A stretch of DNA of 64,000 bases from Anaerosomatales bacterium (lineage in GTDB: Bacteria > Actinomycetota > Coriobacteriia > Anaerosomatales > SLCP01). The notes under the pieces were generated by a model. That model saw only the letters and a program-made list of their open reading frames with translations, was not told the DNA's origin and ran no database searches. Location: the NCBI GenBank assembly GCA_029210645.1, contig JARGFT010000011.1, positions 9,519 through 73,518 on the forward strand, in the 5' to 3' direction. Numbering within the stretch: position 1 is the first letter of the stretch; each line of letters begins with the position of its first letter. The position numbers were made by a program, and so were the translations under genes. This document shows, piece after piece, positions 12,717-62,657 of the stretch.

Positions 12717-12737
12717 GTGCAGTCACCTCCGATAAGC

Positions 12738-15792: not shown

Positions 15793-15793
15793 G

Positions 15794-34543: not shown

Positions 34544-34546
34544 CCC

Positions 34547-36454
34547 CTAGGCCCCTTTCACCACGATCCACAGCATGAGGAGCACGAGCGCTCCCAGGAC
34601 AGAGCGTTGGTAGGTCTGCACCCGGCCGGCCTGGATGCGGCGGAGTGCGCCACCCGAAGCACGGGCGGCGCGCGCTACACCGTTGACGAAACCGTCGATG
34701 ACGCGGCCGTCGAAGCTCCACGCGACCTCGGTCAGGCGCTTCCAGGCCCCAGCCGCTCCGTTCACGGCACCGTCGACCGCACTGCCGTCGAAGCGGGAGA
34801 GGGACTCGGCTGCGCGCATGTACGGGCGGATGATGAAGTGCTCGTACGTCACGTCGAAGTAGTACTTCTGCGTGAGCACGGTGTAGGCGTGGCCGCTTCG
34901 CTCCTTGAGCGAGCGGGTGTTGAGCACGAGGCGCGTGCGCCCGTAGGCCCACCAACCCAGCGCGAGACCGGAGAGTGACACCGCGCTCGACGAGATAGCC
35001 ATCGCCGGATCGGGCCAGTGTCCCGCGTGGCCGAGGAACTCCGAGAAGAAGGGTGCGGAGAAGCCGATCACCGCGGTGATCGCAGCCAGCACACCCATCG
35101 GAGCGAGCATCTCGGCGTGACCCTCGGCAAGGTTCTCGGTCTGAACCGGGCCGGTGAAGACGCGGAACCACAGGCGCGCCACGTAGAAGGCGGTCACGAA
35201 AGCCGCCAACAGTGCGACGGCGAACGTGACGTAGTGCCCGTCGTGCCACACGGCATACAGGATCTCGTCTTTGGACCAGAACCCGGAGAACGGGAAGATG
35301 CCTGCAAGCGCGAGAGCGCCGATGCCGAAGGTGACCGAGGTCACCGGCAGATGGCGTGCGAGCCCGCCCATCTCGCGCATGTCCTGGGTGTGAGCGGCGT
35401 GGATGATGACACCCGCGCCGAGGAAGAGCAGCGACTTGAAGAACGCGTGTGTCACGAGGTGGAACATGCCGGCGATCGCCCCGCCGGCGCCGATGGCGAG
35501 GAACATGTACCCCAGCTGGCTGATCGTCGAGTAGGCCAGCACCTTCTTCACGTCGTGCTGCACCGCGGCGAGCAGCCCTCCGAGCAGCGCGGTGATCGCT
35601 CCGACCGCCATGGTGACGGTGAGGGCCACCCCGCTCGCCTCGAAGATCGGCAGCGCCCGGGCCACGAGGAAGACGCCGGCCGCGACCATGGTCGCCGCAT
35701 GGATGAGCGCCGAGGCAGGTGTCGGGCCCGCCATGGCGTCGGGCAGCCATACGTGCAGGGGCACCTGTGCCGACTTGCCCATCGCGCCGAAGAGCAGCAG
35801 CAGGGCCACCGCGGTCGCGACACCCGGGGCCCAGGCGCCCGCGGAGCCGAGCACGACGTCGAAGTCGAACGAGCCGACCGTCGCGTACATGATCGCGAGC
35901 CCGATCGCGAAGCCGACGTCTCCGACACGCGTGGTGAGGAACGCCTTCTGCGATGCCTTCCTCGGCGCTTCCTGCTCGTGCCAGAACCCGATGAGCAGGT
36001 ACGAGCAGAGCCCCATGACCTCCCACGCCATGTAGAACATGAGGAAGTTGTCGGAGAGCACGAGCGCGAGCATCGCCGCCGTGAAGAGCGTGAGCACGGC
36101 GAAGTACCATCCCACCCGCTCGTCTCTGTGCATGTAGCCGAGCGAATAGACCTGCACGCACACGCCGACGATGGTGACCACAAGCAGCATGATGGCGGCG
36201 AGCGGGTCGAGCAGGATGCCGAGCGAGAGGTCGACTCCGCCTATCTGCGCGATCGGCCAGGAAGCGTGGTACGCCGCCTCACCCTCGTGCCCGCCCGGCC
36301 ACACGGAGGCGAACGCGACCAGCGAGAGCAGCAGCGCGCCGCCCACGCCCGCGACGCCGAGCCAGCGCACGCGATTGCGCACGCCCCGCGAGAGCGGTGC
36401 CATGACCGCGAAGGCCAGCGCCGGGAGCAACGGTATGAGAGCGACGTAGGCCAC
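34547..36454 (-). CDS. nuoL: NADH-quinone oxidoreductase subunit L
   Basis: 635 aa with ...PLHVWLPDAMAGPTPASALIHAATMV... and a long C-terminal lateral-helix region. Confidence 0.93.
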   Translation of the reverse strand: MAYVALIPLLPALAFAVMAPLSRGVRNRVRWLGVAGVGGALLLSLVAFASVWPGGHEGEAAYHASWPIAQIGGVDLSLGILLDPLAAIMLLVVTIVGVCVQVYSLGYMHRDERVGWYFAVLTLFTAAMLALVLSDNFLMFYMAWEVMGLCSYLLIGFWHEQEAPRKASQKAFLTTRVGDVGFAIGLAIMYATVGSFDFDVVLGSAGAWAPGVATAVALLLLFGAMGKSAQVPLHVWLPDAMAGPTPASALIHAATMVAAGVFLVARALPIFEASGVALTVTMAVGAITALLGGLLAAVQHDVKKVLAYSTISQLGYMFLAIGAGGAIAGMFHLVTHAFFKSLLFLGAGVIIHAAHTQDMREMGGLARHLPVTSVTFGIGALALAGIFPFSGFWSKDEILYAVWHDGHYVTFAVALLAAFVTAFYVARLWFRVFTGPVQTENLAEGHAEMLAPMGVLAAITAVIGFSAPFFSEFLGHAGHWPDPAMAISSSAVSLSGLALGWWAYGRTRLVLNTRSLKERSGHAYTVLTQKYYFDVTYEHFIIRPYMRAAESLSRFDGSAVDGAVNGAAGAWKRLTEVAWSFDGRVIDGFVNGVARAARASGGALRRIQAGRVQTYQRSVLGALVLLMLWIVVKGA

Positions 36455-36455
36455 G

Positions 36456-36767
36456 CTACCCCTTCAGCGAGTCGATGGAGGACAGTTCGATGGAGCGGGT
36501 CTGGCGGTAGATCGCGAGCACGAGCGCCAGACCGAGACCGATCTCGGCCGCCGAGACCACCATCGTGAACATGGCGAAGAACTGGCCGGTCATCTCGGTC
36601 GGCGTGACGAAGCGCGAGAGCGCGACCATGTTGAGGTTGACCGCCACCGCCATGAGCTCGAGCGACATCAGCACCATGACCGCGCTGCGACGCGCAACGG
36701 CACCGTAGAGACCGAGCGCGAAGAGCACGGCGGCGAGCCCGAGGAAGGCCGAGGGTCCGATCGTCAC
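36456..36767 (-). CDS. nuoK: NADH-quinone oxidoreductase subunit K
   Basis: 103 aa, 3 TM helices, ...SAAEIGLGLALV... Confidence 0.9.
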   Translation of the reverse strand: MTIGPSAFLGLAAVLFALGLYGAVARRSAVMVLMSLELMAVAVNLNMVALSRFVTPTEMTGQFFAMFTMVVSAAEIGLGLALVLAIYRQTRSIELSSIDSLKG

Positions 36768-37267
36768 CGGTCATCCCCCTCCCTGGACCACCACACGGCG
36801 CCTACGAGCGCCACGAGCAAGACGAGCGACGCGACTTCGAAGGGTAGTGCCCACTGCGTGAAGAGCAGCTCGCCGAGGGCCGCGGTATCGGGCACGACGA
36901 TGGGCATCTCACCGACGCGGTCACCGTACCGGGCGATCGCCACGTACATCACCGTTCCGAAGACCGCGGCCAGGATCCCACCACCGATCGACACCTCGAC
37001 CGGGCGAACGGAGTCCTCACGGCGGCGCAGGGTGAGCATGATCACGAAGAGCATCAGGACCGAGACCGCTCCCGCGTAGATGAGGATCTGCACGACAGCG
37101 AGGAACTCCGCGGAGAGCAGAAGGTAGAGACCGCCCACGGCCACCATGACCTCGAGCAGCCAGAACGCCGCGTGAATGATGTTGCGCGTCGTGAGCATCC
37201 CCACCGCGCCGCCGATCGAGGCGAACGCGAGGATAACGAAGGCCACGCCGTTCACGCTCTCACTCAT
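36764..37267 (-). CDS. nuoJ: NADH-quinone oxidoreductase subunit J
   Basis: Start trimmed to MSESVNGVAFVILAF... About 167 aa, sitting between nuoI and nuoK. Confidence 0.85.
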   Translation of the reverse strand: MSESVNGVAFVILAFASIGGAVGMLTTRNIIHAAFWLLEVMVAVGGLYLLLSAEFLAVVQILIYAGAVSVLMLFVIMLTLRRREDSVRPVEVSIGGGILAAVFGTVMYVAIARYGDRVGEMPIVVPDTAALGELLFTQWALPFEVASLVLLVALVGAVWWSREGDDR

Positions 37268-37763
37268 CGCTGGCCTCCTCTCGGGAAAGCTCGGCCGGGG
37301 AGGAATCGGCCCGGGCAAGTTCGGCCTTCGGTGTGGCTGCGGGACGCGCGCGCTTGACCGGCACCGCGTCCACGTCGGCGAGCAGATCGTAGGTGAGCTC
37401 GGCGGGGTCAAGGCGCGCCAGCTCGTAGTCGTGGCTCATCTCGATCGCATCGAACGGGCAGGCCTCCACGCACAGGCCGCACATCATGCACGCGCCGATC
37501 TCGTAGGAGTAGCGCTCGATGTGCTTGCTCTTGTCCTCGCGGGTCGTGAATTCGAGATCGAGGATATGGTCCGGGCACGCGCGTACGCACGCCATGCACG
37601 CGGTGCACTTCGGCTTGCCCTCCCCGTCGTACTTTGGCACGACCGCCCAGCGGGCACGCTCGGGGATCTCGAGCCTCTCGTAGGGGTACTTCACGGTGAT
37701 CGGCCCGCGCAGCATGTTGCGCATCGTGATACGCATACCGGTGAGGATGCCCTTGCCCCACAT
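37260..37763 (-). CDS. nuoI: NADH-quinone oxidoreductase subunit I (2x[4Fe-4S]) with ~35-aa charged C-terminal tail
   Basis: CTACMACVRACP and CMMCGLCVEACP ferredoxin motifs. Start trimmed to MWGKGILTG..., overlapping the nuoH stop. Confidence 0.92.
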   Translation of the reverse strand: MWGKGILTGMRITMRNMLRGPITVKYPYERLEIPERARWAVVPKYDGEGKPKCTACMACVRACPDHILDLEFTTREDKSKHIERYSYEIGACMMCGLCVEACPFDAIEMSHDYELARLDPAELTYDLLADVDAVPVKRARPAATPKAELARADSSPAELSREEASDE

Positions 37764-38773
37764 CAGGCGACACCCCCGGGAGCCACGAGCTTCACGACAA
37801 CGCCGACGAGCATCAGCCACGCAAGCGAGATCGGGATAAGCCACTTCCAGCCGAGGTTCATGAGGTGGTCGATGCGCACGCGGGGCAGCGTCCCGCGTAT
37901 CCACATGAAGACGAAGATGCCGATGTAGGTCTTCAAGACGAACACCACCGGGGCGATCGGCGCGAGCACCGAATCCGGAACGAACGGCAGCGTCCACCCA
38001 CCGAAGAAGAGCGTGACCGCGAGCGCCGAGATGACAAACGAGTTGCTGAACTCGGAGAGGAAGATCAGGCCGAACTTCATCGACGAGTACTCGGTGGCAA
38101 AGCCGGACACGAGTTCGGACTCGGCCTCGGACATGTCGAAGGGCGTCTGGTTGAGCTCGCACAGCGCCGCGATCATGAAGATGACGAACGAGGGGATGAG
38201 CAGGACCACGAACCACCTCGGAACCACTCCGAGCCAGACGCCGGTCTGGAACGCCACGATCTCGGCAAGGTCCATCGAGCCGACGATCATCACCACCGGC
38301 AGCACCGACAGTAGCAGCGGGACCTCGTACGCGACCTGCTGCGCCGCGGCCCGAAGCGCGCCGATGAGCGCGTACTTGTTCGCCGAGGACCATCCCGCCA
38401 TGATCACGCCGAGCGGGACCACGGAGAGCACCGCGAACGTGTAGAGCAGACCGGTGTCGAGCCGCGTGATGCGCAGCGTCTCAGAAAACGGCAGTGCTGC
38501 GTAGGCCATGAGCGACGGCACGAACACGACCACCGGCGCCAGGACGTACATCCAGCGGTCGACGCCGTTGGGCCTGATGTCCTCCTTGGAGAGCAGCTTC
38601 AGCACGTCGGCGGTGGTCTGGACGATACCCTTGGGGCCGACATGGACCGGACCGAGGCGTAGGTGCAGGTGCCCGAGTACCTTGCGCAGCATGTAGATGA
38701 GCACCACACCGTTGGCCAGCATGAGGCCGATAGCCGCCAGCACGGGCAGTATGGGGGCGAGCACCTGACTCAT
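37763..38773 (-). CDS. nuoH: NADH-quinone oxidoreductase subunit H
   Basis: 336-aa polytopic protein with ...PFDMSEAESELVSGF... Confidence 0.93.
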   Translation of the reverse strand: MSQVLAPILPVLAAIGLMLANGVVLIYMLRKVLGHLHLRLGPVHVGPKGIVQTTADVLKLLSKEDIRPNGVDRWMYVLAPVVVFVPSLMAYAALPFSETLRITRLDTGLLYTFAVLSVVPLGVIMAGWSSANKYALIGALRAAAQQVAYEVPLLLSVLPVVMIVGSMDLAEIVAFQTGVWLGVVPRWFVVLLIPSFVIFMIAALCELNQTPFDMSEAESELVSGFATEYSSMKFGLIFLSEFSNSFVISALAVTLFFGGWTLPFVPDSVLAPIAPVVFVLKTYIGIFVFMWIRGTLPRVRIDHLMNLGWKWLIPISLAWLMLVGVVVKLVAPGGVA

Positions 38774-39975
38774 CGGTCTATCTCCCCGAGGACGATGTCC
38801 ACACTGCCGATCAGCATGATGGCGTCGGCAAGCAGGTGACCGGGGAGTATCTCCTCGAGGACTTGCATCGCGAAGAGCGACGGGGCCCGGTAGTGGAACC
38901 GGTAGGGCGTGTCGGAGCCGTCAGCTACCAGGTGAACGCCGAGCTCGCCGCGGGGCGACTCCACGCACGCGTAGGTCTCTCCCGCCGGCGGGCGGAGCAC
39001 CCTGGGGACCTTTGCCATCACATCTCCTTCGGGCAGCCCCTCGATGCACTGGCGGCACATGCGCGCTGCCTGCCGCATCTCCTCCATGCGCACGAGATAG
39101 CGGTCCCACGCGTCCCCGGTCGCACCGAGCGGCACGTCGAAGTCGAGCTCGGTGTAGGCGGCGTAGGGCTTGTCGCGGCGTACGTCGTACGGGACGCCGC
39201 TTCCCCGCAGGTTGGCGCCGGTCAGACCGAACGCAAGCCCGGTCTCGCGATCGATGACGCCGACCCCGCGGACACGCTTCTGAAAGATCTCGTTGCCGCC
39301 GAGCAGCGCGTGATGCTCGTCGAGGTACGAGTCGATGGTACGCAGAAAGGTCCGGAGCTTCTGCTCGGCATCGGGCGTGATATCGTCGAGAACGCCGCCC
39401 GGCCGCACGTAGTTGAACATCATCCGCTGCCCGGTGACCGACTCGAGCACGTCGAGCAGCGCCTCCCTCTCGCGCATCGCGTAGAGGAACTGCCCCATCG
39501 CACCGCAGTCCAGTCCGAACGTCCCGAACCACACCAGGTGGCTTGCGATGCGGTTGACCTCGCTCATGAGGCTCCGGAGCCACTGGCCCCTGGGCGGCAC
39601 CTCGACCTCGAGCAGCTGCTCGGCCGCGAGCGCGGCGGCAAGCTCACCGTGGATCCCCGAGACGTAGTCGCCGCGGTCCATCAACGTTCCGAGCTGGTGG
39701 TAGCGCCGGTGCTCCCCGAGCTTCTCGATGCCGCGGTGCAGGTAGCCGACGGCCACCTCTACGTTCATGACCTCCTCGCCGTCGAGCTCGGCAACGAGGC
39801 GCAGCACGCCGTGGGTCGACGGGTGCTGGGGGCCGATGTTGACGACGAGGTGCTCGGTAGCAAGCCCGTCGACACCGCTCGGGATACGCTTGATGCCGGC
39901 GGGCGCCCTGCCCGGATCGAAGGTTCCCTCGGCCTGCAGAGCGTGCGTGAGAACGGTGTCGCGCGGGTCGGTCAC
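38770..39975 (-). CDS. nuoD: NADH-quinone oxidoreductase subunit D
   Basis: 401 aa with ...NIGPQHPSTHGVLR... Confidence 0.95.
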   Translation of the reverse strand: MTDPRDTVLTHALQAEGTFDPGRAPAGIKRIPSGVDGLATEHLVVNIGPQHPSTHGVLRLVAELDGEEVMNVEVAVGYLHRGIEKLGEHRRYHQLGTLMDRGDYVSGIHGELAAALAAEQLLEVEVPPRGQWLRSLMSEVNRIASHLVWFGTFGLDCGAMGQFLYAMREREALLDVLESVTGQRMMFNYVRPGGVLDDITPDAEQKLRTFLRTIDSYLDEHHALLGGNEIFQKRVRGVGVIDRETGLAFGLTGANLRGSGVPYDVRRDKPYAAYTELDFDVPLGATGDAWDRYLVRMEEMRQAARMCRQCIEGLPEGDVMAKVPRVLRPPAGETYACVESPRGELGVHLVADGSDTPYRFHYRAPSLFAMQVLEEILPGHLLADAIMLIGSVDIVLGEIDR

Positions 39976-40401
39976 CGGTCGCGCACCTCCTTAAGCGTGC
40001 GGATCGGCACCGAGCGGCGCAGCAGAGGTTGCTCTCCGTCGGTGGTGAGCAGCCGTGCCGGGTTCGGATGGCCGGCGAGTGTGAGCCCGAACAGTTCGGC
40101 TGTCTCGCGCTCGGGCAGCAGCGCCGAGGCGTACACGTTCCAGACCGAGTGTAGAACGCCGTCGTGGGGCAGCGAGCACTTCACGTAGAGCTCCTCGTCG
40201 CGAGCGAACGAGCGCAGGTGGTAGGTGAGCTCGACGTCTTCGTCGGTGTCGGTACCGAGCAGGTCGACGAGCATCACGAATCCCAGGTCGCTGGACTTGA
40301 GCGCGGAGAGCACGGCGGCCGTGTCCTCGTGAGGCACGCGCACGACCACGCCCAGGGACGTCGCCGTCACCTCGGCCCGCGCCACTCCTGTGAGTACCGT
40401 C

Positions 40402-40427
<26 letters not shown>
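39972..40427 (-). CDS. nuoC: NADH-quinone oxidoreductase subunit C
   Basis: About 150 aa of the 30-kDa family (...[10 protein letters not shown]...). Start uncertain: GTG 40427 overlaps nuoB, and GTG 40385 is the alternative. Confidence 0.8.
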
Positions 40428-40926
<499 letters not shown>

Positions 40927-41467
40927 GCATAGAGCAGGCCGAGCACGAGGATACCGACGAATACGGCCATCTCAACCAGGATGAAGGGGCCCATCCGCCC
41001 GAAGACGACCGCCCACGGGTAGAGAAAGACCGTCTCGATGTCGAAGACGACGAAGAGTAGCGCGTAGACGTAGTAGCCGATGCGGAACTGCACCCACGGC
41101 GGACCGATCGGTTCCACGCCGCACTCGTAGATACGGCCCTTCTCGAACGAGGGCCTCTGGTGGCTCAGAAGGTTTGAGAGGGTGACCGTCACCATAACGA
41201 AGACGACGCCCACGAGAACGAAGGTGCCGAGTACAACATAGTCGGATGCCATGTCCCGGAACTGCCGTCCTCTCCACCTCACACACCACTGCGGGTGCGC
41301 CCAAATCAGGATACGACAACGCCCGTCGAGCGGCGAGGGGCCGCTGGCCCGGGCGTAGAGTTCGCGACAAGGTAACACAAGTCACATCACCGCTCAAGAG
41401 TACCTGAGTACCTCGGCTCCGATGCGGTATCGTAGAGAACGAAGGCGACGTACGGGAGGAGGCAGCC

Positions 41468-41683: not shown

Positions 41684-41759
41684 TGGAGCCGACGAGGGGA
41701 CTCGAACCCCTGACCTGCGCATTACGAGTGCGCTGCTCTACCAGCTGAGCTACGTCGGC
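41684..41759 (-). tRNA. tRNA-Thr (anticodon CGU), CCA encoded
   Basis: Minus strand reads GCCGACG-TA-GCTC-AGCTGGTA-GAGC-A-GCGCA-CTCGTAA-TGCGC-AGGTC-AGGGG-TTCGAGT-CCCCT-CGTCGGC-T-CCA. This folds by hand as a clean cloverleaf. Confidence 0.93.
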
Positions 41760-53570: not shown

Positions 53571-54323
53571 CTAGTAGCCCTGTGTACGGCGCCGCTCGAT
53601 GCGCTTGACGAGTACGACACGGGCGAGCGCCATGCTGATCTCGTACAAACCGACAAGCGCCGCGAACAGCGCGAGCATCGTCACCGGCGACCAGTCGGGC
53701 GTCGCGCCTGCCGCCAACACGATCAACACCGTGTAGACCACGCGCCAGTTCGCCCGCAACTTGTCGTAGGGAACGATATTGAAGATCATGAGATAGAAGA
53801 TGACCACCGGCAGCTGGAAGGCGAGCCCGAACCCGAGCATCAGCATGATGGCGCCCTGGAAGTAGGTGCTCGCCTCGGGCATCTGCGTGACGCCCTCCCA
53901 CGCCTGCCCCACGATCCACTCGAATGCGGTGCCGAGGATCACCTGGTGCGCGAAGACGACACCACCTGCGAACAGCACCACCATCGCAAGGAACGTCGGG
54001 ACCACCCACTTGCGCTCGTTGGGCTTAAGGGCAGGAAGGAAGAACGCCATGACCTGCCAGATGATGATGGGGCTGCCCACGACGAGCGTGGCGTAGAGGG
54101 CGACCTTGAAGCGCAGAGTGAACGTCTCGAACGGGTTGAGGACCACGAGTTGCTGGTCCCCGAAGATGTGCAGGATCGGCTGCATCGCAAGGTTGTAGAA
54201 GTACGGCGCGGGGAAGTACAGGACGATCGAGCCCGCGAAGACGACGATGGCGATGATGATGAGCCGGTGGCGCAGTTCCCGGAGGTGCTCGGTGATGGGA
54301 AGTCGCTTGGGTCCTATCGGCAT
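53571..54323 (-). CDS. tatC: Twin-arginine translocase subunit TatC
   Basis: 250 aa, 6 TM helices, ...LPITEHLRELRHRL... Confidence 0.93.
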   Translation of the reverse strand: MPIGPKRLPITEHLRELRHRLIIIAIVVFAGSIVLYFPAPYFYNLAMQPILHIFGDQQLVVLNPFETFTLRFKVALYATLVVGSPIIIWQVMAFFLPALKPNERKWVVPTFLAMVVLFAGGVVFAHQVILGTAFEWIVGQAWEGVTQMPEASTYFQGAIMLMLGFGLAFQLPVVIFYLMIFNIVPYDKLRANWRVVYTVLIVLAAGATPDWSPVTMLALFAALVGLYEISMALARVVLVKRIERRRTQGY

Positions 54324-54350
54324 GATGTGGTCCGAGGAAGCGCCCGGGGG

Positions 54351-54668
54351 CTACTCCTCTTCCTCCTCGTCCTCATCCTCGGGCACCGAATCGTCCGCGA
54401 GGAGCGGCGTGCCGGGAACCCGGGTCGGCGGGACGGCCTCCTCGTCTTCGCCCTCCTCGTCGCTCTCCACATCGGCCAGGTTGCCCGGCGTACGCTTGTC
54501 AGCGTAGACCTCGGCCCGGATAACGGACTCCATAGTCTCCTGGGCACGCTTGAACTCGCGCATCATCTGACCGATCGTCCGCCCGAACTGAGGAAGCTTG
54601 TCGGGGCCGAAGATGAGCAGCACGAAGACGACGATAATGAAGAGCTCGGTTCCGCCGATGCCGAACAC
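54351..54668 (-). CDS. tatA: Twin-arginine translocase subunit TatA/E with long acidic tail
   Basis: MFGIGGTELFIIVVFVLLIFGPDKLP... The C-terminus ends ...EDEDEEEEE. Confidence 0.92.
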   Translation of the reverse strand: MFGIGGTELFIIVVFVLLIFGPDKLPQFGRTIGQMMREFKRAQETMESVIRAEVYADKRTPGNLADVESDEEGEDEEAVPPTRVPGTPLLADDSVPEDEDEEEEE

Positions 54669-55665: not shown

Positions 55666-56322
55666 CTACGGCGTGGTCGTCGCCTCGCCTGACGGCGTCG
55701 CCGGTAACTCAGCAAGCATGCTCTGGGCGGCCGATGCACTCTGGCCGTCCGGCTCTATCTCGAGGTAGCGCGTGAACGCCACTGCCGCATCGTCCATCCG
55801 CCCGGCGGCCCGGTAGAAGATCCCGGCGTTGAAGTAGGCGGGGGCAAACTCGGGCACATCGGCCATCACCTGCTCCGCCACCTCGATGGCGCGTGAGGTC
55901 TGTCCCGAGTAGAAGTACGCGATGGCCATGTCGACCGATACGTTCGGGTCGCCGGGCTGCTGGGCCAGCGCCCGCTCGTAGGCGGTCGTCGCCGAGGCCC
56001 AGTACGGCAGGTCGTGTCCCGTGTTGGGACCGAGCCCCTGCTGGATCTGGACTCCCCAGTCGAAGTACGTGTTGCCCAGCCCCACCAGTGCCGTATAGCT
56101 CGTCGGCTCGCTGGCCAGCATCGCCGTATACGAGTTCACGGCGGGCAGGTGATCGTTGGCGATACGCTCCAGGGTCGCACCGGTCTCCGTCGCGCCGGTC
56201 GCCTGTTGGGTGTTGCCGCCGCCCATGAACAGTGCGGGAACCAGGCTCGCCACGAAGGCGACCACGACGAATACCAGGACGACCTTCACCCAGAGCGATG
56301 ACTGCTTCTTGTTGATAGCCAC
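55666..56322 (-). CDS. Membrane-anchored TPR-repeat protein
   Basis: N-terminal TM helix (...LWVKVVLVFVVVAFVASLVPALF) followed by about 3-4 TPR-like repeats. Confidence 0.75.
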   Translation of the reverse strand: MAINKKQSSLWVKVVLVFVVVAFVASLVPALFMGGGNTQQATGATETGATLERIANDHLPAVNSYTAMLASEPTSYTALVGLGNTYFDWGVQIQQGLGPNTGHDLPYWASATTAYERALAQQPGDPNVSVDMAIAYFYSGQTSRAIEVAEQVMADVPEFAPAYFNAGIFYRAAGRMDDAAVAFTRYLEIEPDGQSASAAQSMLAELPATPSGEATTTP

Positions 56323-56325: not shown

Positions 56326-56733
56326 TTACTCGCTCTCGCCCTCGGGAGCAGCGGTGTCCGTCGCCTCTCCACCGGTCATGTCATCGATCGGAGGATGTCC
56401 CGGAGGCATCTCGCCCTGCAGTTCCTGTTCGGAGAGCGGAGGCGCTTGCGTGCCGCCGGTACCCATGCTGGGAACGCCCACGCTCGGCGACGTCACCTGC
56501 GGGCTGCCGGTAGGGATGAGGATACCGATGATGATGCCGACGAGCAGCGCGACCACGCCGATAAGACCGGCAACGCTCATCGTCACGCTCTGTGCTCCGG
56601 CGGGAGCGGCAGCCGTCTTGGTGCGGGGAGCGCTCGCCCGGGCCTTGGCACCGGCAGGCTTGGCCGCCGACTTGGCTGCGGGCTTATCAGCCTGAGCCTC
56701 GTCGTCGTCGAAGAAGAAGTCCTGGTCACTCAC
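56326..56733 (-). CDS. Hypothetical single-pass membrane protein (acidic N-terminus, external PPGHPP motif)
   Basis: 135 aa with a low-complexity Ala/Lys-rich cytoplasmic part, one TM helix, then ...GEMPPGHPPIDDM... Ends 3 nt before the TPR gene start. Confidence 0.6.
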   Translation of the reverse strand: MSDQDFFFDDDEAQADKPAAKSAAKPAGAKARASAPRTKTAAAPAGAQSVTMSVAGLIGVVALLVGIIIGILIPTGSPQVTSPSVGVPSMGTGGTQAPPLSEQELQGEMPPGHPPIDDMTGGEATDTAAPEGESE

Positions 56734-56768: not shown

Positions 56769-57224
56769 TCAGTCCTCTCCGGAATCCCCCGGAAAGCGGC
56801 TGCGACCCCGCGCGATTATAGCACGCACCCTCGCTTGTACCTCCGCGCCTTCGAATGAGCGCTCGTAGCGCCTCAGGGATACGAGGGATGCGGCCCCGGC
56901 CGATATGGCGAGCACGGCGCCGGCGACGTCCGGTGCGAGTTGCACCCAGTTTGCCAGCAAGAAGCCAGCCAGATACCCGAGCACCACTGCCGCCACAGGA
57001 ACTACATAGACGAGTCGCTGCGCCCGTCGCCGGGCAGCGGCAGGAGTCTCGACCTCCACGGTGTCACCAGGGCGGGCACCGTGCGTGTCTACGATGCTTT
57101 CGAGCAGGCGTTTCCCGCCCGCACCCTCGGCACAGGCACCGCACGTCGCGCACGATTCGGACGGCACGATGGCGACCGAAACGCGTCCGTCGGCGGCCGA
57201 GACGACCGTGCCACACTCGCGCAT
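56769..57224 (-). CDS. RseC/MucC (SoxR-reducing system) family protein
   Basis: Start trimmed to MRECGTVVSAADGRVSVAIV...CATCGACA, followed by two TM helices. This is the typical RseC architecture. Confidence 0.75.
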   Translation of the reverse strand: MRECGTVVSAADGRVSVAIVPSESCATCGACAEGAGGKRLLESIVDTHGARPGDTVEVETPAAARRRAQRLVYVVPVAAVVLGYLAGFLLANWVQLAPDVAGAVLAISAGAASLVSLRRYERSFEGAEVQARVRAIIARGRSRFPGDSGED

Positions 57225-57226: not shown

Positions 57227-58579
57227 CTAGACGATCCTCAACTTGATGCGCATCTCCTCGGCCCGAGCCTGGATGCGGTCGATGTCGAGCAGGCTCCAAC
57301 GGCCCGAATCGTAGAGCACCTGACCTGCGACCATGGTGAACATCACGTTCTCCTGATTCGCGGTATGCACGAGCGTGCTGTACGGGTAAAGCGTCGGGAT
57401 CTGGTGGCTGTGCGAGATGTCGACGGCGATGATGTCCGCCTGCTTGCCCGGTTCCAGCGAACCCACCCGATCGTCGAGGCCAAGGGCTCGTGCGGCGTCG
57501 AGGGTTCCCATCTTGATGAACTGGCGGGCGATCAAGTGTGACTCGTAGCCAGAGAGTGCGCGCTGGATGAGCAGGCCTATCCGCATCTCATCGAACATGT
57601 CCAGCGTGTTGTTCGATGCGGGCGAGTCGGTCCCGATCCCCACCTCTATCCCCCGCTCGAGGAAGCTGCCGAGCGGGGCGACACCCATGCCGAGCTTGGC
57701 GTTGCAGCGCGGGCAGTACGCCACGGCCACCTCGCGACCGGCGAGGATCTCCATGTCGGCGTCGTCGACCTGCGTGCAGTGCACCGCGAGCATCCGTGGG
57801 ACCTCGAAGAGCCCCCACTGGTCGATGTAGCGCACGGGGCTCACGCCGGTGGGCAGCCACCCGAGATCGACACCGGTGAATGTGTCCCGGTAATCCACCG
57901 CAAGACGGGAGCTGCCGTACTTCACGAAGTCGTACTCGTCCTTCGAGCCTGCCACGTGCATCGCGACCGGCAGGTCCTCGGCGATCGCCTTCTCGGCGAC
58001 CTGACGGTAGACCTCGGGGTGACAGCTGTACGCCGCGTGCGGCGCGATCCCAATGGTCAGACGCGACGGGTCCCCGTACTCGCGCCATGCCGCGATGTCC
58101 TCGGCTGCGCGGGCCATCAGCCCCGCTACCTGTCGCTTTTCCATCGTGGAGACTTCCCGGTACGCGACCGCGCGAAGGCCGGACCCCGCCGCCGCGCGCG
58201 CCGATGCGCCCGTCTCGGTGATGTCGGCGACCGTCGTGATGCCGGACTGCAGGGCCTCGGCGGCGCCGAGCCGGGCGGCGTCCTCCCAGTCCTCGTCATC
58301 GAGGTACTGTTCCTTCTCGAGCAGCTGGAGTTTCCACTGCGAGTAGGGCAGGTCGTCGACGAGTCCGCGCATCGCCGAGTACTCGAGGTGGGTGTGCAGG
58401 TCGACGAAGCCGGGCATGAGCACGGCAAGGCCGAAGTCGCGGATCTCCTCGTCGGGATGGGCCGCTTTGAGCTTCTCGAGCTCCCCGATCTCCACGATGT
58501 GGTCGCCGTGCACGAGCACGGCGCCATCGACGATGTGCGGCGCGGCTATCGGAAGGACGTACCGGGCGGCGAGTAGCAT
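57227..58579 (-). CDS. Amidohydrolase (COG0402-type: MTA/SAH, guanine or aminofutalosine deaminase-like)
   Basis: Start trimmed to MLLAARYVLPIA... (ATG 58579). Metal motifs ...GFVDLHTHLEYS..., ...VAMHVAGS... and ...IGTDSPASN... Confidence 0.85.
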   Translation of the reverse strand: MLLAARYVLPIAAPHIVDGAVLVHGDHIVEIGELEKLKAAHPDEEIRDFGLAVLMPGFVDLHTHLEYSAMRGLVDDLPYSQWKLQLLEKEQYLDDEDWEDAARLGAAEALQSGITTVADITETGASARAAAGSGLRAVAYREVSTMEKRQVAGLMARAAEDIAAWREYGDPSRLTIGIAPHAAYSCHPEVYRQVAEKAIAEDLPVAMHVAGSKDEYDFVKYGSSRLAVDYRDTFTGVDLGWLPTGVSPVRYIDQWGLFEVPRMLAVHCTQVDDADMEILAGREVAVAYCPRCNAKLGMGVAPLGSFLERGIEVGIGTDSPASNNTLDMFDEMRIGLLIQRALSGYESHLIARQFIKMGTLDAARALGLDDRVGSLEPGKQADIIAVDISHSHQIPTLYPYSTLVHTANQENVMFTMVAGQVLYDSGRWSLLDIDRIQARAEEMRIKLRIV

Positions 58580-58752: not shown

Positions 58753-59499
58753 CTACTTCACGGCGGTGTGGATGGCGACGATGCCGCCGGTGCGGTCCTC
58801 CCAGGAGATCGCGGTGAAGCCCGCGGCCCGCAACTCGGCCGCAAGCTGGGCCTGCGGCGGGAAGGAGCGGATCGAGTCGTTGAGGTAGACGAACGAGGCG
58901 CGGTCGCGCGTGAGCAGTCCGCCGATCGCCGGGATGACGACACGCAGGTAGAGGTGGTAGAACCAACGCCACGGCGCAAAGGAAGGACGCGAGAACTCGA
59001 GGATGACGTAGCGCCCGCCCGGTTTGAGGACCCGCAGGACCTCGGAGAAGTTGGCTGCGCGGTCGGGCAGGTTGCGCACCCCGAAGGCCACTGTCGCTAC
59101 GTCGAACGAGGAGTCCGGGAAGGGCAGGTCCTGGGCGTCTGCGACGGAGAAGGACACCTTGGTGCGGCCCGAGAAGCCACGCCCCTTCTGCTCGGCGACC
59201 GCAAGCATCTCGGGTACGAAGTCGGTGCCGACGACCTCGGCCGGCCTGCCCTGCTTCGCGAGGGCAAGCGAGAGGTCACCGGTGCCGGCGCACAGGTCGA
59301 GCACCCGGCTCGTGGTCTTGAGGTTTGCCGCCTGCACCGCAGCGCGCCGCCAGGACCGGTCGATGCCGAAGCTCGAGAGGATGTTGAACAGGTCGTAGCG
59401 GTCCGCGATCAGCGAGAAGATGCCATGCACGCGCTCGGCGGTCGGCTCGCCCGGCGCTGGAGCGCCGGGCGCATCTCGTTCGTCGTTCACGTCGGGCAT
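58753..59499 (-). CDS. menG: Demethylmenaquinone/ubiquinone C-methyltransferase (UbiE/MenG family)
   Basis: ...YDLFNILSSFGIDRSWRR..., SAM motif ...VLDLCAGTGDL... and ...LKPGGRYVILEFS... The ATG shares 1 nt with the radical-SAM gene stop. Confidence 0.88.
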   Translation of the reverse strand: MPDVNDERDAPGAPAPGEPTAERVHGIFSLIADRYDLFNILSSFGIDRSWRRAAVQAANLKTTSRVLDLCAGTGDLSLALAKQGRPAEVVGTDFVPEMLAVAEQKGRGFSGRTKVSFSVADAQDLPFPDSSFDVATVAFGVRNLPDRAANFSEVLRVLKPGGRYVILEFSRPSFAPWRWFYHLYLRVVIPAIGGLLTRDRASFVYLNDSIRSFPPQAQLAAELRAAGFTAISWEDRTGGIVAIHTAVK

Positions 59500-61289
59500 C
59501 AGGCCTCCGGGGGTTCGCACACGGGCTGTGGACGGGGCGCGGGGCGCCTCCGGGACCCGAACAGGTTAGCTAGGTTCTCCCGCAGCCACAACATGAAGAC
59601 GTGGCGAACGTTACGGAGGCCCACCGAACGAGGCCAGTTCAGCTCGGACTTCTCGCAGACCGTCGACTCGCTCAGGCGATCGATCTCCTCCTTGAGAGCA
59701 TCGAGTTCGCGCCCGCGGACAGCAGGGTCCCGCTCGCCCATCACCTCATCGATGCGCGCCATGGCCTCACGAGCCTGAAGAATGCGGTCCTCGGTGCACG
59801 CCACGACGTCCGGCTCGATGGTGCCCAGGCGCCCCTTGAGGCGGTTCAGGCGCAGGCCCACCTCGTACATCGTGTCGACCATCTCGTCTTTGGGAAGCGA
59901 GTGGCTCTCGTAGTTCATGATGTACTTCCAGGAGGGCTGCACGAGCAGCTGGCGGTGCTCCTCGAGCGTGTCGGCCAGCCGCGTGTAGCCGTACTTCTCG
60001 GGATTGTCGTAGACCATCGAGCCGGGATCGAGGAACGGCGCCATGGGCGACGAGAAGCACAGCAGCCGCTTATCGTTGCCCACCTTCTCGTAGAGCGACT
60101 CGATGTAGGCCGGCGTCTCGAGCACGGAAGCGGCGGTCTGGGTCGGGATGCCGGTCATCATGTAGAGGTCGAAGCGCGAACAGCCGTTGCGCAGCGCCGC
60201 GGCGATCGACTCCTCTACCTGCGCGGTGGTGTAGTGGTGCTTGCCGAAGGCCGCGCGCACATCGTCGTCGTGCGTCTCGATGCTGATCTCGACCGAGTAG
60301 TCGTCGAGGTGCTCGTTGAGGAACCAGTAGAACTCCTCGGCGGGCGGCTTGAAGAACTCGAACCCGATCGGATTGCGCAGGTTGATCTTAGAGAGCCCGC
60401 GTATGAATGCGGCGGTGTAGTCGCGCCCGGCCTGCAGGAAGTCGTTGAGCACGAAGACCGGCCCCGGGATGTACTTCTGGAAGTGTTCGATATCGCGGAC
60501 CAGCAGCTCCGGATCGCGGAACGCCACGCGGTCGCGGCCGTAGTGGTTTCTGAACGCGTATGCCGAGCCGCCGCACGTCACGCAGTTGTGCGTGCAACCC
60601 CGGCAGGTGAGCGAGGCACACACCGGGTACTGCAGCCAGTCCTTGAAGGGCACAGAGCCCATCATGTCCCGGTAGCGGATGACCGACTTCATGCTGTAGG
60701 AGTAGTCGAGCGAGATGTCGTTCATGTCGCCCGGGACCCACTCGAACGGCGTCGAGTGCACAGACCCGTCGCGCGTGGTGTAGGTCAGGTTCGGGATGTC
60801 ATCGACCCGTCCCTTCCCCTTGAGCGCGTAGAGCAGGCGCGTCATCGGCTCCTCGGTCGAATCGCCGCGCACCACGTAGTCCACGCTCGGGTAGCTCGCG
60901 AGCTCCTCGTGGAAGAAGCTGGCCGAGAGGCCGCCGAAGATCACCGGCGTGTCCGGATGGTACTTCTTGCAGATCTTCGAGATCTCGACCGAGCCGTGGG
61001 CGTGTGGCAGCCAGTGCAGGTCGATGCCGAATGCGACCGGGTTCATCTCCCGGATCGCCCGCTCGACGTCGAAACCGGGCTTGTTGAGCATGAGGACGGC
61101 CAGGTTCACGATGCGGACCTTCAGCCCGTGGCGCTCCATGTACTCGGCCATGGTCGTGAAACCGAGGGGGTACATCTCGAAGACAGGGGTCGAGGGCACC
61201 ATGTCGGACACCGGTCCGAACATGATGGAGCGCTCTCTGAAGTCATACACGCTGGGAGCGTGGAGCAACACGAGGTCGACTCGCGACAT
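59499..61289 (-). CDS. B12-binding-domain / radical SAM protein (~596 aa)
   Basis: Start trimmed to MSRVDLVLLHAPSVYDF... An N-terminal Rossmann-like cobalamin-binding domain is followed by the radical SAM cluster motif CTHNCVTC (CxxxCxxC). Confidence 0.82.
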   Translation of the reverse strand: MSRVDLVLLHAPSVYDFRERSIMFGPVSDMVPSTPVFEMYPLGFTTMAEYMERHGLKVRIVNLAVLMLNKPGFDVERAIREMNPVAFGIDLHWLPHAHGSVEISKICKKYHPDTPVIFGGLSASFFHEELASYPSVDYVVRGDSTEEPMTRLLYALKGKGRVDDIPNLTYTTRDGSVHSTPFEWVPGDMNDISLDYSYSMKSVIRYRDMMGSVPFKDWLQYPVCASLTCRGCTHNCVTCGGSAYAFRNHYGRDRVAFRDPELLVRDIEHFQKYIPGPVFVLNDFLQAGRDYTAAFIRGLSKINLRNPIGFEFFKPPAEEFYWFLNEHLDDYSVEISIETHDDDVRAAFGKHHYTTAQVEESIAAALRNGCSRFDLYMMTGIPTQTAASVLETPAYIESLYEKVGNDKRLLCFSSPMAPFLDPGSMVYDNPEKYGYTRLADTLEEHRQLLVQPSWKYIMNYESHSLPKDEMVDTMYEVGLRLNRLKGRLGTIEPDVVACTEDRILQAREAMARIDEVMGERDPAVRGRELDALKEEIDRLSESTVCEKSELNWPRSVGLRNVRHVFMLWLRENLANLFGSRRRPAPRPQPVCEPPEA

Positions 61290-61409: not shown

Positions 61410-62618
61410 CTACTGGGAGACGGATCCCCTCACGTGGCACTCGGCGCAGTACGTCGGGTTGTGGCAGTCGAAGCACTGCTGTGCTCCGCCCTCGCGCACC
61501 GGCTCCATGTGCTGCGGGATCCACGCGCGGTTCGGATCGGCGCCCTCGTGGTGGCAGTCGTTGCAGAAGTCCGATCCCGGCGCACTCGCATGGCAGTTCT
61601 CGCAGACCTCGGGACGGGTCCGTCCGTCCTCGCCATGCTCCTTGGCAAAGCCCTCGGGGTGCGGCATCTGCACGCCGTGGCAACCGTCGCAGAACACGCG
61701 CTCGTTGTGGCAGGTCTGGCAGTAGCCGACCGCCGCCACCGGCGGGAGATGCTGGAGCTGCTCGTACATCGGCGCGTCGGTGTGCGGCTCTTCGAGATCG
61801 GCGCGGGCCGCTGTATAGGCGGCGAAGTCCTCGTTGGCCATCGCCGCGTGGCCACCGCTCTCGCCGTACGGCTCGTAGAAGCCCGGTTCGCTGTGGTTCG
61901 CCGGCATGAGCTCGAAGTCAGGCGTGTGGCATGCCTCGCACTCGGCGGGGGCCACGATCCCGCTCACGGACTCGCCGCTCGTGGTGTGGCACCGGTAGCA
62001 GGCCGCCATGAGCATGAAGTCCTCGTGCGGCTGGTTGGGCTCGCCGGTGCCCGGGTCGGTGAGCGTGAGCTCGAAGTCCTCGACGTGCGCGGTGCGGTTG
62101 TGGCACACCGTGCAGTGGATCTCGGCCTCATCGTGGACGGCGTGGTCGATGACGATCCCCGGGCTGGGGGTCACGGTGCGGTTCTCGAGCCAGTGGCACT
62201 GGTTGCACTGCTCCGGACCCATGTACTTCTGGCTGAGCGCGAGATGAGAGCCGTGATTGAGGGGCAGTTCGAACTTGTTGGTGGCCGTGAGATACAGCTC
62301 GCCGAGGGCCTCGGCCTTGTGCAGCAGGAAGGTGACCGGATCGGCGTTCACCGGCATGTGGCACGCCATGCACGACACTTCGGAGTGCGGCGAGCGGTCG
62401 TAGGCGATGATCGTGTCGTCCTGCACCTTGTGACACACGTTGGCGCAGAACCAGTACGTCGAGGTAACGCCGAGTGCGACGACAACGAATGCCGCCAGAC
62501 CGAGGACGACCGCACCTGTCCAGATGAGATAGCGGGGACGCCGCATCGGGTCGGCGTAACCGGAGAAGAACGTCTTCAGCTTCGGCATGCGCTCCTGTCC
62601 TGTCTCACGAGGCTCCAT
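61410..62618 (-). CDS. Membrane-anchored dodecahaem c-type cytochrome with NapC/NirT (NrfH/CymA)-like N-terminal module
   Basis: 402 aa. TM anchor ...YLIWTGAVVLGLAAFVVVALGV, then FCANVCH...SPHSEVSCMACHMP (NapC/NirT pattern). I counted 12 CxxCH motifs in total. Confidence 0.85.
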   Translation of the reverse strand: MEPRETGQERMPKLKTFFSGYADPMRRPRYLIWTGAVVLGLAAFVVVALGVTSTYWFCANVCHKVQDDTIIAYDRSPHSEVSCMACHMPVNADPVTFLLHKAEALGELYLTATNKFELPLNHGSHLALSQKYMGPEQCNQCHWLENRTVTPSPGIVIDHAVHDEAEIHCTVCHNRTAHVEDFELTLTDPGTGEPNQPHEDFMLMAACYRCHTTSGESVSGIVAPAECEACHTPDFELMPANHSEPGFYEPYGESGGHAAMANEDFAAYTAARADLEEPHTDAPMYEQLQHLPPVAAVGYCQTCHNERVFCDGCHGVQMPHPEGFAKEHGEDGRTRPEVCENCHASAPGSDFCNDCHHEGADPNRAWIPQHMEPVREGGAQQCFDCHNPTYCAECHVRGSVSQ

Positions 62619-62657
62619 AGTAACTCAATTCACAACCCTACCATGAAAAAGGGGGGG

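Follow-up and report, generated by a model that had tools for sequence, protein, structure and literature searches.

The locus examined here raises the question of why a gene for a cobalamin-binding radical SAM (rSAM) enzyme should be tied to menG, the gene for the methyltransferase that acts on demethylmenaquinone, and whether this arrangement points to a step of menaquinone tailoring that has not yet been described. The window, i.e., the whole stretch of DNA that was analysed, comprises 64,000 nucleotides of an Anaerosomatales bacterium (Actinomycetota, Coriobacteriia; GCA_029210645.1, contig JARGFT010000011.1), and the coordinates given below and in the table count from its first letter. 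The sequence-only reading from which the analysis started had claimed that the rSAM stop codon shares a nucleotide with the menG/ubiE start, that the two genes are almost certainly co-expressed, that the enzyme recalls the poorly characterised subfamily named after Thermoplasma Ta0216, and that, since Thermoplasma makes a methylated menaquinone while the known extra ring methylations are attributed to class C (HemN-like) enzymes, a B12-dependent menaquinone-tailoring step might be encoded here.

The first point is whether the arrangement is real, and the junction described by that reading was confirmed in the sequence. The rSAM protein starts MSRVDLVLLHAPSVYDFRE; an upstream TTG at 61343 is not supported as the start, because the homologues align from residue 1 of the ATG form, and the public annotation of the identical protein also gives 596 aa. 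On the minus strand the junction reads ...CCGGAGGCCTGATGCCC, the A of the rSAM stop TGA being the first base of the menG ATG, so that exactly one nucleotide is shared, with a GGAGG Shine-Dalgarno sequence 4 nt upstream of that ATG. A one-base overlap between stop and start is common in operons and proves little alone; what exceeds chance is its conservation, described below.

Features of the window around the rSAM gene (all on the minus strand)
Coordinates	Feature	Length	Observations
59499..61289	TIGR04190 (Ta0216-family) B12-binding rSAM enzyme	596 aa	CX3CX2C motif at C232/C236/C239
58753..59499	UbiE/MenG demethylmenaquinone C-methyltransferase	248 aa	PF01209, 220 bits
59499..59508	Translational-coupling junction		Shine-Dalgarno GGAGG 59508-59504; stop TGA 59501-59499; start ATG 59499-59497
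57227..58579	Amidohydrolase of the MtaD/DadD type	450 aa	Conserved downstream of MenG in 27 loci
56769..57224	RseC/MucC-family small protein (PF04246)	151 aa	Starts 2 nt after the amidohydrolase stop; may belong to the same operon; conserved cluster 34 in 12 Actinomycetota loci
56326..56733	Conserved protein with no family match and no Pfam hit	135 aa	One predicted membrane helix; conserved in 21 loci
55666..56322	Membrane-anchored TPR protein	218 aa	Conserved in 24 Actinomycetota loci
61410..62618	NapC/NirT-type multihaem quinol dehydrogenase (PF03264, 47.6 bits)	402 aa	Ends 120 nt upstream of the rSAM start; directly upstream of the rSAM in 11 or more loci
53571..54668	TatA (54351..54668) and TatC (53571..54323)		Part of the conserved downstream syntenic block; TatC 4.7-5.5 kb downstream in most Coriobacteriia-like loci, at other distances elsewhere in the clade; one rSAM-TatC fusion protein exists (P0131)
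31691..41381	nuo (complex I) operon		About 18 kb from the rSAM; context only

The identity of the two coupled proteins was examined next by profile searches and structure comparison. The rSAM protein scores 613.7 bits against NCBIfam TIGR04190 (B12_SAM_Ta0216; cut-off 500), the match covering residues 5-538 of the protein and positions 1-531 of the 554-position model, so that the suggested link to the Ta0216 subfamily was right. Members from Thermoplasmatales, Bacillus, Geothermincolia-like and Anaerolineae genomes score 635-664 bits, so this is one family. Pfam finds a B12-binding domain (PF02310, aa 35-146, 55.2 bits) and a Radical_SAM domain (PF04055, aa 228-392, 34.4 bits), and the three cysteines of the cluster motif are conserved in at least 90% of 39 diverse members. 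The AF2 model (pLDDT 93.1) superposes its B12 domain on those of TsrM, TokK and OxsB. The downstream protein scores above the curated cut-offs of TIGR01934 MenG_MenH_UbiE (240.4 bits, cut-off 158.35) and NF001244 (226.8 bits, cut-off 216), although whether it is the only MenG of the genome was not examined. For the amidohydrolase a reading as aminofutalosine deaminase was considered and rejected as the primary one, since NF006269 gives 186 bits against a cut-off of 320 and the characterised aminofutalosine deaminases DR_0824 and Nis_0429 score only 99 and 80 bits, compared to 186 bits for the nearest solved structure, the MTA/SAH deaminase 4f0r; moreover, Eggerthella and Gordonibacter use the classical Men pathway (PMC4746308). 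The protein is probably a deaminase for 5'-substituted adenosines (SAH, MTA, 5'-deoxyadenosine), the by-products of the two SAM enzymes encoded upstream.

Is the association with MenG found beyond this genome? Related loci (designated below by L numbers) were located with an alignment of 14 sequences, the alignment of 39 sequences being too diverse for this purpose. A MenG homologue follows on the same strand, within 142 nt of the end of the rSAM alignment, in L001-L023 and L078, where the order rSAM, MenG, amidohydrolase is kept; the same three genes are present, rearranged, in a gut Eggerthellaceae genome. In addition, three protein clusters are natural fusions of the rSAM with a UbiE domain (P0124, seen on 3 contigs, P0125, seen on 2, and P0402), and P0124 and P0125 sit on separate branches of the tree. 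The genes of the prenyl side chain are also involved: in Geothermincolia-like genomes the order hepS-like, rSAM, menG, hepT-like occurs in L028, L031 and L035, while in L027 the hepS-like and hepT-like genes flank the rSAM without menG and in L057 a hepT-like gene follows it and the short upstream ORF clusters with the same family. The hepT-like gene scores 249 bits for PF00348, and its best NCBIfam match is HepT (303 bits, below the cut-off). It should be considered that the linkage to MenG, HepS/T and the amidohydrolase is inherited within one monophyletic Actinomycetota clade, so that those loci count as roughly one evolutionary event. In lineages outside Actinomycetota a MenA-like UbiA prenyltransferase accompanies the rSAM in 15 loci and in two gene orders, lying 9-68 nt upstream in 11 loci and 50-282 nt downstream in 3, whereas L171 has MenA and a HepT-like gene 1.2-2.2 kb upstream; TIGR00751 menA scores 106-120 bits against a cut-off of 102 in four of them.

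The association extends to enzymes that use the quinone. The gene is inserted in the nuo operon as nuoA-B-C-[rSAM]-D-H-...-N in L064 (a Dehalococcoidia MAG), L128, L129 and L143, it follows nuoN, after two small ORFs, in a Thermoplasmatales MAG, and it has NDH-2 as a divergent neighbour in Anaerobacillus arseniciselenatis; NiFe hydrogenase with HypA is a divergent neighbour in 7 metagenome loci. Overall, 47 of 171 loci have MenG, MenA, HepS or HepT within 500 nt, which for a random gene is estimated at well under 1%. On the other hand, 49 of 81 genome loci (Chloroflexota, Thermodesulfobacteriota and others) have no menaquinone gene within 10 kb apart from two weak, distant UbiE-like hits, their neighbours being variable (MoxR with DUF58, Rex-CBS-OFOR, SelA, SurE), and about half of the sampled loci, among them many in Anaerolineae and Bacillaceae, show no quinone genes nearby. 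In Neobacillus, Mesobacillus, Bacillus sp. T3 and an Alicyclobacillaceae genome the gene stands alone; these genera are reported with plain MK-7, although only from aerobic cultures. Within the window, a Pfam scan of 30 further ORFs across 1-49 kb found no mqn or men genes, only housekeeping genes and nuo. No riboswitch was found upstream of the gene in Bacillaceae, in Thermoplasmatales or in the window, a promoter and terminator scan of 55.5-62.8 kb gave nothing above the shuffled expectation, and the search for a Rex operator returned only a match with 3 mismatches at 62618-62635, which is not significant.

Taken with these data, the interpretation advanced by the sequence-only reading is supported. 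Menaquinone is the common denominator of these contexts, but the reaction is unknown. Co-expression with MenG is backed by the overlapping stop and start with the Shine-Dalgarno sequence, by the conserved order and by the natural fusions, while a role in menaquinone tailoring is backed by neighbourhood evidence that was not available to that reading. Two outcomes had been named in advance as counting against it, namely a consistent neighbourhood with unrelated pathways such as lipid or RiPP genes and a clustering of the protein with enzymes of known, different function; both were looked for, and neither is seen. The product implied there, a Thermoplasma-like methylmenaquinone, is nevertheless only one option, and it is weakened by the presence of the family in gut Eggerthellaceae, whose 8- and 7-methylated quinones (MMK and DMMK) are assigned to class C MenK/MenK2 (PMC10114718). 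This observation, together with the many loci without quinone context, argues against a plain 8- or 7-methylmenaquinone synthase.

The gene encodes a class-B-type rSAM enzyme, with a cobalamin-binding Rossmann domain and one [4Fe-4S] cluster, of the uncharacterised family TIGR04190. The explanation that we favour, with moderate confidence, is that it acts late in menaquinone (MK) biosynthesis on prenylated demethylmenaquinone (DMK) or menaquinone in the membrane, and that it would make a tailored quinone for low-potential anaerobic respiration. In this Coriobacteriia genome it is translated together with MenG, the C2 methyltransferase, and it probably shares an operon with the MtaD/DadD-like deaminase. 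In the most likely chemistry, one SAM would methylate cob(I)alamin, giving SAH, a second SAM would be cleaved to the 5'-deoxyadenosyl radical, which would abstract a hydrogen from the substrate, and methylcobalamin would then deliver a methyl group to that carbon, on the ring or on an alkyl or prenyl carbon; the by-products SAH and 5'-deoxyadenosine inhibit such enzymes, and the neighbouring deaminase would clear them. Family membership, the predicted fold, the coupling of the genes and the recurrent menaquinone and respiratory context rest directly on the analysis, whereas the substrate (MK or DMK), the methylation and the role of the deaminase are inferences from it; indeed, no chemistry was tested, cobalamin binding, methyl transfer and methylation at C-8 or C-7 were not assayed, no quinone profile is available, and only the gene context points to menaquinone. 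That the family works on menaquinone or its immediate precursors appears fairly likely, while C-methylation, although the leading guess, is held only tentatively; B12 rSAM enzymes also catalyse reactions other than methylation, such as ring contraction by OxsB, thioether formation by ThnL and cyclisation by Grs (PMC13459092, PMC9407657).

Among the alternatives, all of them unlikely, the one that survives best is that the enzyme does act on menaquinone or demethylmenaquinone but is not a simple methylase, and performs instead C-S bond formation towards a methylthio-naphthoquinone (methionaquinone-like), side-chain cyclisation or oxidation, or extension of the C2 methyl group installed by MenG. 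The gene context is the same as for the favoured explanation, B12 rSAM enzymes are known to form thioethers (ThnL, PMC9407657) and rings in isoprenoid chains (GrsA/GrsB, PMC13459092), the Eggerthellaceae carry this family in spite of their MenK/MenK2, and the tight coupling or fusion to MenG fits an enzyme acting directly before or after C2 methylation. However, only the three cluster cysteines are conserved, with no auxiliary-cluster motif as found in MiaB/RimO, for which reason a methylthiotransferase reading was rejected; the best partial matches to named families are C-methylases (HpnR at 53-76 bits, KedN5 and RiPP C-methyltransferases at about 22 bits), although BzaD and the non-methylase BchE also appear, and no sulfur-donor gene is conserved nearby.

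Somewhat less likely still, the enzyme could have a general function unrelated to quinones, on another lipid, a cofactor or an RNA, its position next to menaquinone and respiratory genes reflecting lineage-specific synteny and the habit of anaerobic-respiration genes to cluster. More than half of the loci have no quinone gene nearby, RluD being found among the neighbours there in addition to those listed above, the gene stands alone in Bacillaceae, and the nearest named families are lipid methylases, HpnR and the ladderane-type B12 rSAM. Against this, at least five separate lineages place the gene directly next to, inside or fused with different menaquinone or quinone-reductase genes (MenG, HepS/T, MenA in two orders, nuo and NDH-2), no lipid, RiPP, tRNA or cofactor pathway recurs, and the family occurs in both Thermoplasmatales and bacteria, which share menaquinone but not membrane lipid types. 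The weakest alternative, the C-methylation of a residue in a quinone-binding respiratory enzyme such as NuoD, by analogy with Mmp10 and MgmA, which methylate methyl-coenzyme M reductase, could account for the nuo insertions, the position after nuoN in Thermoplasmatales, the NDH-2 and hydrogenase neighbours and the best sequence match to a solved structure (MgmA, 9ccb, E 4.7e-7), but it does not explain the UbiE/MenG fusions, the hepS-rSAM-menG-hepT operons or the 15 MenA loci, no single respiratory enzyme is a neighbour in all lineages, and the match to MgmA covers only the generic rSAM core.

A more far-reaching reading, possible but less likely than not, is that TIGR04190 would define a third, cobalamin-dependent class of quinone-tailoring enzyme, making a menaquinone derivative not attributed to any known gene (methylated at a new ring position, extended at the C2 methyl group or modified in the side chain), or that it could be the unassigned route to thermoplasmaquinone or methionaquinone in Thermoplasmatales; the product would be made only under anoxic, B12-replete conditions, and so would have been missed by routine aerobic chemotaxonomy of Bacillaceae, Chloroflexota and Coriobacteriia. 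Methylated and otherwise tailored menaquinones set the redox potential of anaerobic respiratory chains and are used as taxonomic and environmental biomarkers, and only class C (HemN-like) enzymes are known to tailor the menaquinone ring. The family is large: the search returned 7171 protein clusters at E<=1e-10, a count that may include other B12 rSAM families, and at least 588 hits came from species-representative genomes, spanning gut Eggerthellaceae, subsurface Coriobacteriia, Chloroflexota, Bacillaceae and Thermoplasmatales; cultured carriers exist, including Neobacillus, Mesobacillus and Anaerobacillus arseniciselenatis. If confirmed, a role on menaquinone would assign a function to a long-standing "hypothetical" TIGRFAM, predict new quinone species in anaerobes, explain why the gene sits inside complex I operons and give a genetic marker for low-potential quinone use in metagenomes. 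In the literature, no paper on TIGR04190 was found, the hits for Ta0216 were all irrelevant strings, and searches combining menaquinone, B12 or cobalamin rSAM, the nuo operon and Thermoplasma found no characterisation. The Synechocystis B12 rSAM Slr0320 was speculated to methylate a quinone (PMC8065906); it was not compared with the present protein, no cyanobacterial hits appeared, and no use is made of it here.

How, then, does the enzyme compare with known systems? With MqnK, MenK and MenK2, the class C rSAM methyltransferases of menaquinone C-8 and C-7, it shares the proposed substrate and purpose, i.e., tuning the quinone for anaerobic respiration, and both are oxygen-sensitive rSAM enzymes; paralogue pairs that recall MenK/MenK2 occur here too, as a tandem pair in Thermincola and as two distinct proteins named for the same Bacillaceae species, some of them on a contig of the same length. 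The fold and cofactor set are, however, unrelated: an N-terminal cobalamin domain is present and no HemN_C domain is found, HemN (1olt) aligns only over the generic core (TM 0.24), and class C enzymes use two SAM molecules and no cobalamin (PMC10114718), so that the protein is not a member of that family. With the structurally characterised cobalamin-dependent enzymes TsrM, TokK, CysS, OxsB and MgmA, ranked first by Foldseek (E 1e-15 to 1e-12, probability 1.0), it shares the three-part architecture of a Rossmann B12 domain, an rSAM barrel with CX3CX2C and a helical C-terminal domain, but sequence identity is only 12-17%, TM is about 0.5-0.56, the HMM matches are weak (E 1e-3 to 5e-7) and the substrates of those enzymes (tryptophan, carbapenem, cystobactamid, nucleoside and protein) are unrelated. 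Among the lipid-modifying B12 rSAM enzymes (HpnR, HpnP, Gmm, GrsA/GrsB), whose substrates are membrane isoprenoid lipids like the one proposed here, the hopanoid C-3 methylase HpnR is the best-scoring named family after TIGR04190 (53 bits here, 76 bits for the L035 homologue), far below its cut-off of 650, and no hopanoid or tetraether genes, such as Tes, lie nearby; orthology to the GDGT ring synthases GrsA/GrsB (Saci_1585, Saci_0240) was not tested, and the family is abundant in bacteria, which do not make GDGTs. Finally, the Geothermincolia-like loci have the three genes of the Bacillus subtilis gerC operon, hepS-menH(menG)-hepT, in the same order, with the TIGR04190 gene inserted between the hepS-like gene and menG, where the B. 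subtilis operon has no such gene.

On the minus strand, the ORF encoding the B12-binding radical SAM enzyme (rSAM) comprises 596 aa starting MSRVDLVLLHAPSVYDFRE, and its junction with the next gene reads CCGGAGGCCTGATGCCC, the stop codon of the first and the start codon of the second sharing one base, while a GGAGG Shine-Dalgarno sequence sits 4 nt before that ATG (the coordinates of these and of the other features are collected in the table below). The public annotation of an identical protein, found on contig JAVVDZ010000017.1 of the Coriobacteriia MAG GCA_032251415.1, makes the same calls of 596 aa and 248 aa. Pfam finds a B12-binding domain and a Radical_SAM domain in the first protein, and Ubie_methyltran in the second; NCBIfam places the first protein in TIGR04190 B12_SAM_Ta0216 at 613.7 bits (cut-off 500), and the second in MenG_MenH_UbiE at 240 bits (cut-off 158). 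What the sequence-only reading had observed, namely a B12-type radical SAM gene whose stop codon overlaps the start of menG, is therefore correct in every factual part, including the link to the Ta0216 family.

Coordinates of the features discussed in the text
Sequence	Position	Strand	Feature
Window	59499..61289	minus	rSAM ORF
Window	59501-59499	minus	Stop TGA of the rSAM gene
Window	59499-59497	minus	ATG of the MenG gene
Window	61410-64000		Cluster of multihaem c-type cytochromes
Window	62618-62635		Weak Rex-operator-like site
Window	14839-17167	minus	Two long ORFs (367 aa and 457 aa)
Window	12727-12759 and 41687-41759		L31-Coriobacteria ribosomal leader and one tRNA
L064	8592-21383		Complex I operon with the rSAM gene inserted
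L171	6950-7996		Second radical SAM gene
L135	506-1336		SAM hydroxide adenosyltransferase gene (example locus)
L037	4607-7619		MoxR-rSAM-DUF58 arrangement (example locus)
L081	9986-13810		Tandem paralogues in Thermincola ferriacetica
L172/L173	10001-12265		Gut Eggerthellaceae versions of the rSAM

As for the protein itself, an alignment of 39 diverse relatives keeps the cluster motif C232-x3-C236-x2-C239, and no further conserved cysteines appear. The AlphaFold model built on that alignment is confident (pLDDT 93.1, pTM 0.91), and Foldseek ranks the cobalamin-dependent radical SAM enzymes TsrM, TokK, OxsB, CysS and MgmA first (E 1e-15 to 1e-12), although sequence identity is only 12-17% and TM about 0.5-0.56; sequence searches of the PDB give only weak core matches. 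Apart from TIGR04190, the best named family is the hopanoid C-3 methylase HpnR, at 53 bits against a cut-off of 650. The protein is thus a class-B-type enzyme with no characterised close relative, and a literature search found no paper that mentions the family.

The family is widely distributed. A search of a large protein collection returned 7171 clusters at E<=1e-10, a count that may include other B12 radical SAM families, the closest hits (70-97% identity) coming from Coriobacteriia and Actinomycetota MAGs; at 50% clustering there are 319 representatives at E<=1e-30, and at least 588 hits came from species-representative genomes. Members from Thermoplasmatales, Bacillus, Geothermincolia-like and Anaerolineae genomes all pass the TIGR04190 cut-off, at 635-664 bits, and cultured carriers include Neobacillus, Mesobacillus, Anaerobacillus arseniciselenatis and an Alicyclobacillaceae strain. 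The Thermoplasmatales proteins (P0139/P0274, locus L082) are 56-61% identical to those of Bacillaceae and Alicyclobacillaceae (P0284-P0401), and in a neighbour-joining tree they nest inside the Bacillota branch, next to Alicyclobacillaceae, which suggests horizontal transfer between acidophilic Bacillota and Thermoplasmatales. The versions found in gut Eggerthellaceae (P0403-P0498) are about 750-780 aa long, with a C-terminal extension of roughly 150-180 aa that has no Pfam match; for most of them the precomputed Pfam annotation lists only the B12 domain.

In the window, the local order on the minus strand is multihaem cytochromes, a NapC/NirT quinol dehydrogenase, the rSAM, MenG, an amidohydrolase, an RseC-like protein, a 135-aa unknown protein, a TPR protein, two STAS proteins, TatA and TatC, and HypA and HypB. 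The multihaem c-type cytochromes upstream comprise the NapC/NirT type and then a larger protein that runs off the window end, while the matching public contig also carries an NHL-repeat protein and a 479-aa multihaem protein; this suggests extracellular or low-potential electron transfer in this Coriobacteriia organism. A protein that reads like a Rex redox-sensing repressor, an identification made by inspection of the sequence with no HMM run, lies within about 1.5 kb upstream of the rSAM, sometimes with a small ORF between, at loci L016 and L022 (Actinomycetota) and L038, L039, L052 and L056 (Anaerolineae), and its cluster is present in 11 Actinomycetota and 4 Anaerolineae loci; in the window, only a weak Rex-operator-like site (3 mismatches, not significant) lies just upstream of the NapC/NirT gene. 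Elsewhere in the window, two long ORFs with a coding-like GC3 bias have no Pfam match at E<=1e-8, and Rfam finds an L31-Coriobacteria ribosomal leader (34.6 bits, just above its gathering score), which agrees with the Coriobacteriia origin of the window, and one tRNA.

The rSAM-MenG-amidohydrolase order is present in the loci numbered L001-L023 and L078, at 64-97% identity, and the same genes occur, rearranged, in a gut Eggerthellaceae genome. Three protein clusters are natural rSAM-UbiE fusions (P0124, P0125 and P0402); two of them are seen on more than one contig, and P0124 and P0125 lie on different branches of the tree. Two other fusion proteins, each seen on a single contig, join the rSAM with TatC (P0131, 814 aa) and with a PGA_cap domain (P0132, 1060 aa); TatA and TatC also lie near the gene in the Actinomycetota clade, in Thermoplasmatales and in locus L171. 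In Geothermincolia-like genomes the order is hepS-like, rSAM, menG, hepT-like, amidohydrolase (L028, L031 and L035; L029 is cut short), whereas L027 has the hepS-like and hepT-like genes flanking the rSAM without menG, and L057 has a hepT-like gene after it. All of these loci form one monophyletic Actinomycetota clade, and therefore they show the long-term maintenance of one arrangement, not many independent origins.

To look at independent lineages, a metagenome scan was seeded with the Thermoplasmatales/Bacillota branch and gave 80 more loci, whose neighbouring ORFs were subjected to unbiased clustering followed by HMM annotation. A MenA-like UbiA prenyltransferase lies directly upstream (9-68 nt) of the rSAM in 11 loci of one lineage and directly downstream in 3 loci of another lineage (L070, L117 and L133), while L171 has MenA, a HepT-like gene and then the rSAM; the best NCBIfam matches are all 1,4-dihydroxy-2-naphthoate prenyltransferase models, and TIGR00751 menA exceeds its cut-off in four cases. 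In L171 a second radical SAM gene, best matching the PTO1314 family (TIGR03961, 129 bits, below its cut-off), lies directly upstream of the TIGR04190 gene, MenA and the HepT-like gene being further upstream; in L134, L135, L137, L139 and L149 a SAM hydroxide adenosyltransferase gene (PF01887/PF20257) lies upstream of the MenA-rSAM pair, directly or with one ORF between, and is preceded by GatB or a conserved 72-aa ORF where the contig extends that far. The gene is also inserted inside a complex I operon between nuoC and nuoD, as nuoA-B-C-[rSAM]-D-H-I-J-K-L-M-N, in a Dehalococcoidia MAG (L064) and in three metagenome contigs (L128, L129 and L143) whose rSAMs are 64-66% identical to the L064 rSAM; in one Thermoplasmatales MAG it follows nuoN, after two small ORFs; in Anaerobacillus it is paired divergently with an NDH-2 gene beside the cta cluster; and in seven metagenome loci it is paired divergently with NiFe hydrogenase, in most of these also with HypA. 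In all, 47 of 171 loci have MenG, MenA, HepS or HepT within 500 nt.

Such a context is not found everywhere: 49 of the 81 genome loci (Anaerolineae, Thermodesulfobacteriota and others) have no menaquinone gene within 10 kb apart from two weak, distant UbiE-like hits, and their neighbours vary (MoxR with DUF58, Rex-CBS-OFOR, SelA, SurE). In many Anaerolineae of the L030-L050 group the gene sits tightly between a MoxR AAA+ ATPase (about 44 nt upstream) and a DUF58 protein (about 54 nt downstream), an arrangement which is unexplained, whereas in Neobacillus mesonae, Mesobacillus subterraneus, Bacillus sp. T3 and an Alicyclobacillaceae genome the gene stands alone. A consistent neighbourhood with unrelated pathways, such as lipid or RiPP genes, had been named in advance as the pattern that would speak against a role in menaquinone tailoring; no lipid, RiPP or tRNA pathway recurs anywhere, so that this pattern is not seen.

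The items that do recur are the enzymes that build prenylated menaquinone (HepS/T, MenA, MenG) and those that reduce or oxidise it (complex I, NDH-2, hydrogenase, NapC/NirT), and menaquinone, which is also one of the few lipids common to Thermoplasmatales and these bacteria, is the only thing they share; we therefore take the family to act on prenylated DMK or MK. The interpretation offered by the sequence-only reading is accordingly supported, with reasonable though not full confidence, at the level of a menaquinone-linked tailoring enzyme, while the reaction is unresolved. Cobalamin-dependent C-methylation is the default, because most class B enzymes are methylases and the nearest named families are methylases, but it can be put forward only tentatively. 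As to the adjacent amidohydrolase, it is nearest to MTA/SAH deaminases (4f0r, 186 bits) and less similar to aminofutalosine deaminases (80-99 bits), and Eggerthella and Gordonibacter use the classical Men pathway (PMC4746308); we read it as clearing SAH and 5'-deoxyadenosine, the by-products of a class B methylase and of MenG. Whereas the gene arrangements and family assignments are results of the analysis, both the methylation and the role of the amidohydrolase are inferred. The family is uncharacterised.

The identity of the product deserves a comparison with the known routes to modified menaquinones. Thermoplasmaquinone is a methylmenaquinone (PMC6832408), which fits the connection with Thermoplasma suggested by the sequence-only reading; however, 8- and 7-methylation in Wolinella and Adlercreutzia is done by class C MqnK, MenK and MenK2 (PMC10114718), and gut Eggerthellaceae nevertheless carry the present family. 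The product may therefore be something other than 8- or 7-MMK or, alternatively, the two systems may replace each other in different species; this was not tested, as it requires whole genomes. A protein-modifying role on NuoD, by analogy with MgmA and Mmp10, explains the nuo insertions but neither the MenG fusions nor the MenA pairs, and is unlikely. With respect to gene organisation, the arrangement seen in the Geothermincolia-like genomes is the Bacillus gerC operon with the rSAM inserted. Finally, Thermincola ferriacetica has two tandem paralogues of the family, and for several Bacillaceae species (Neobacillus mesonae, Mesobacillus zeae, M. persicus, M. stamsii and M. subterraneus) two or more distinct TIGR04190 proteins are listed, those of N. 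mesonae and of M. zeae being recorded in each case with a longest contig of the same size; this pairing recalls that of MenK and MenK2.
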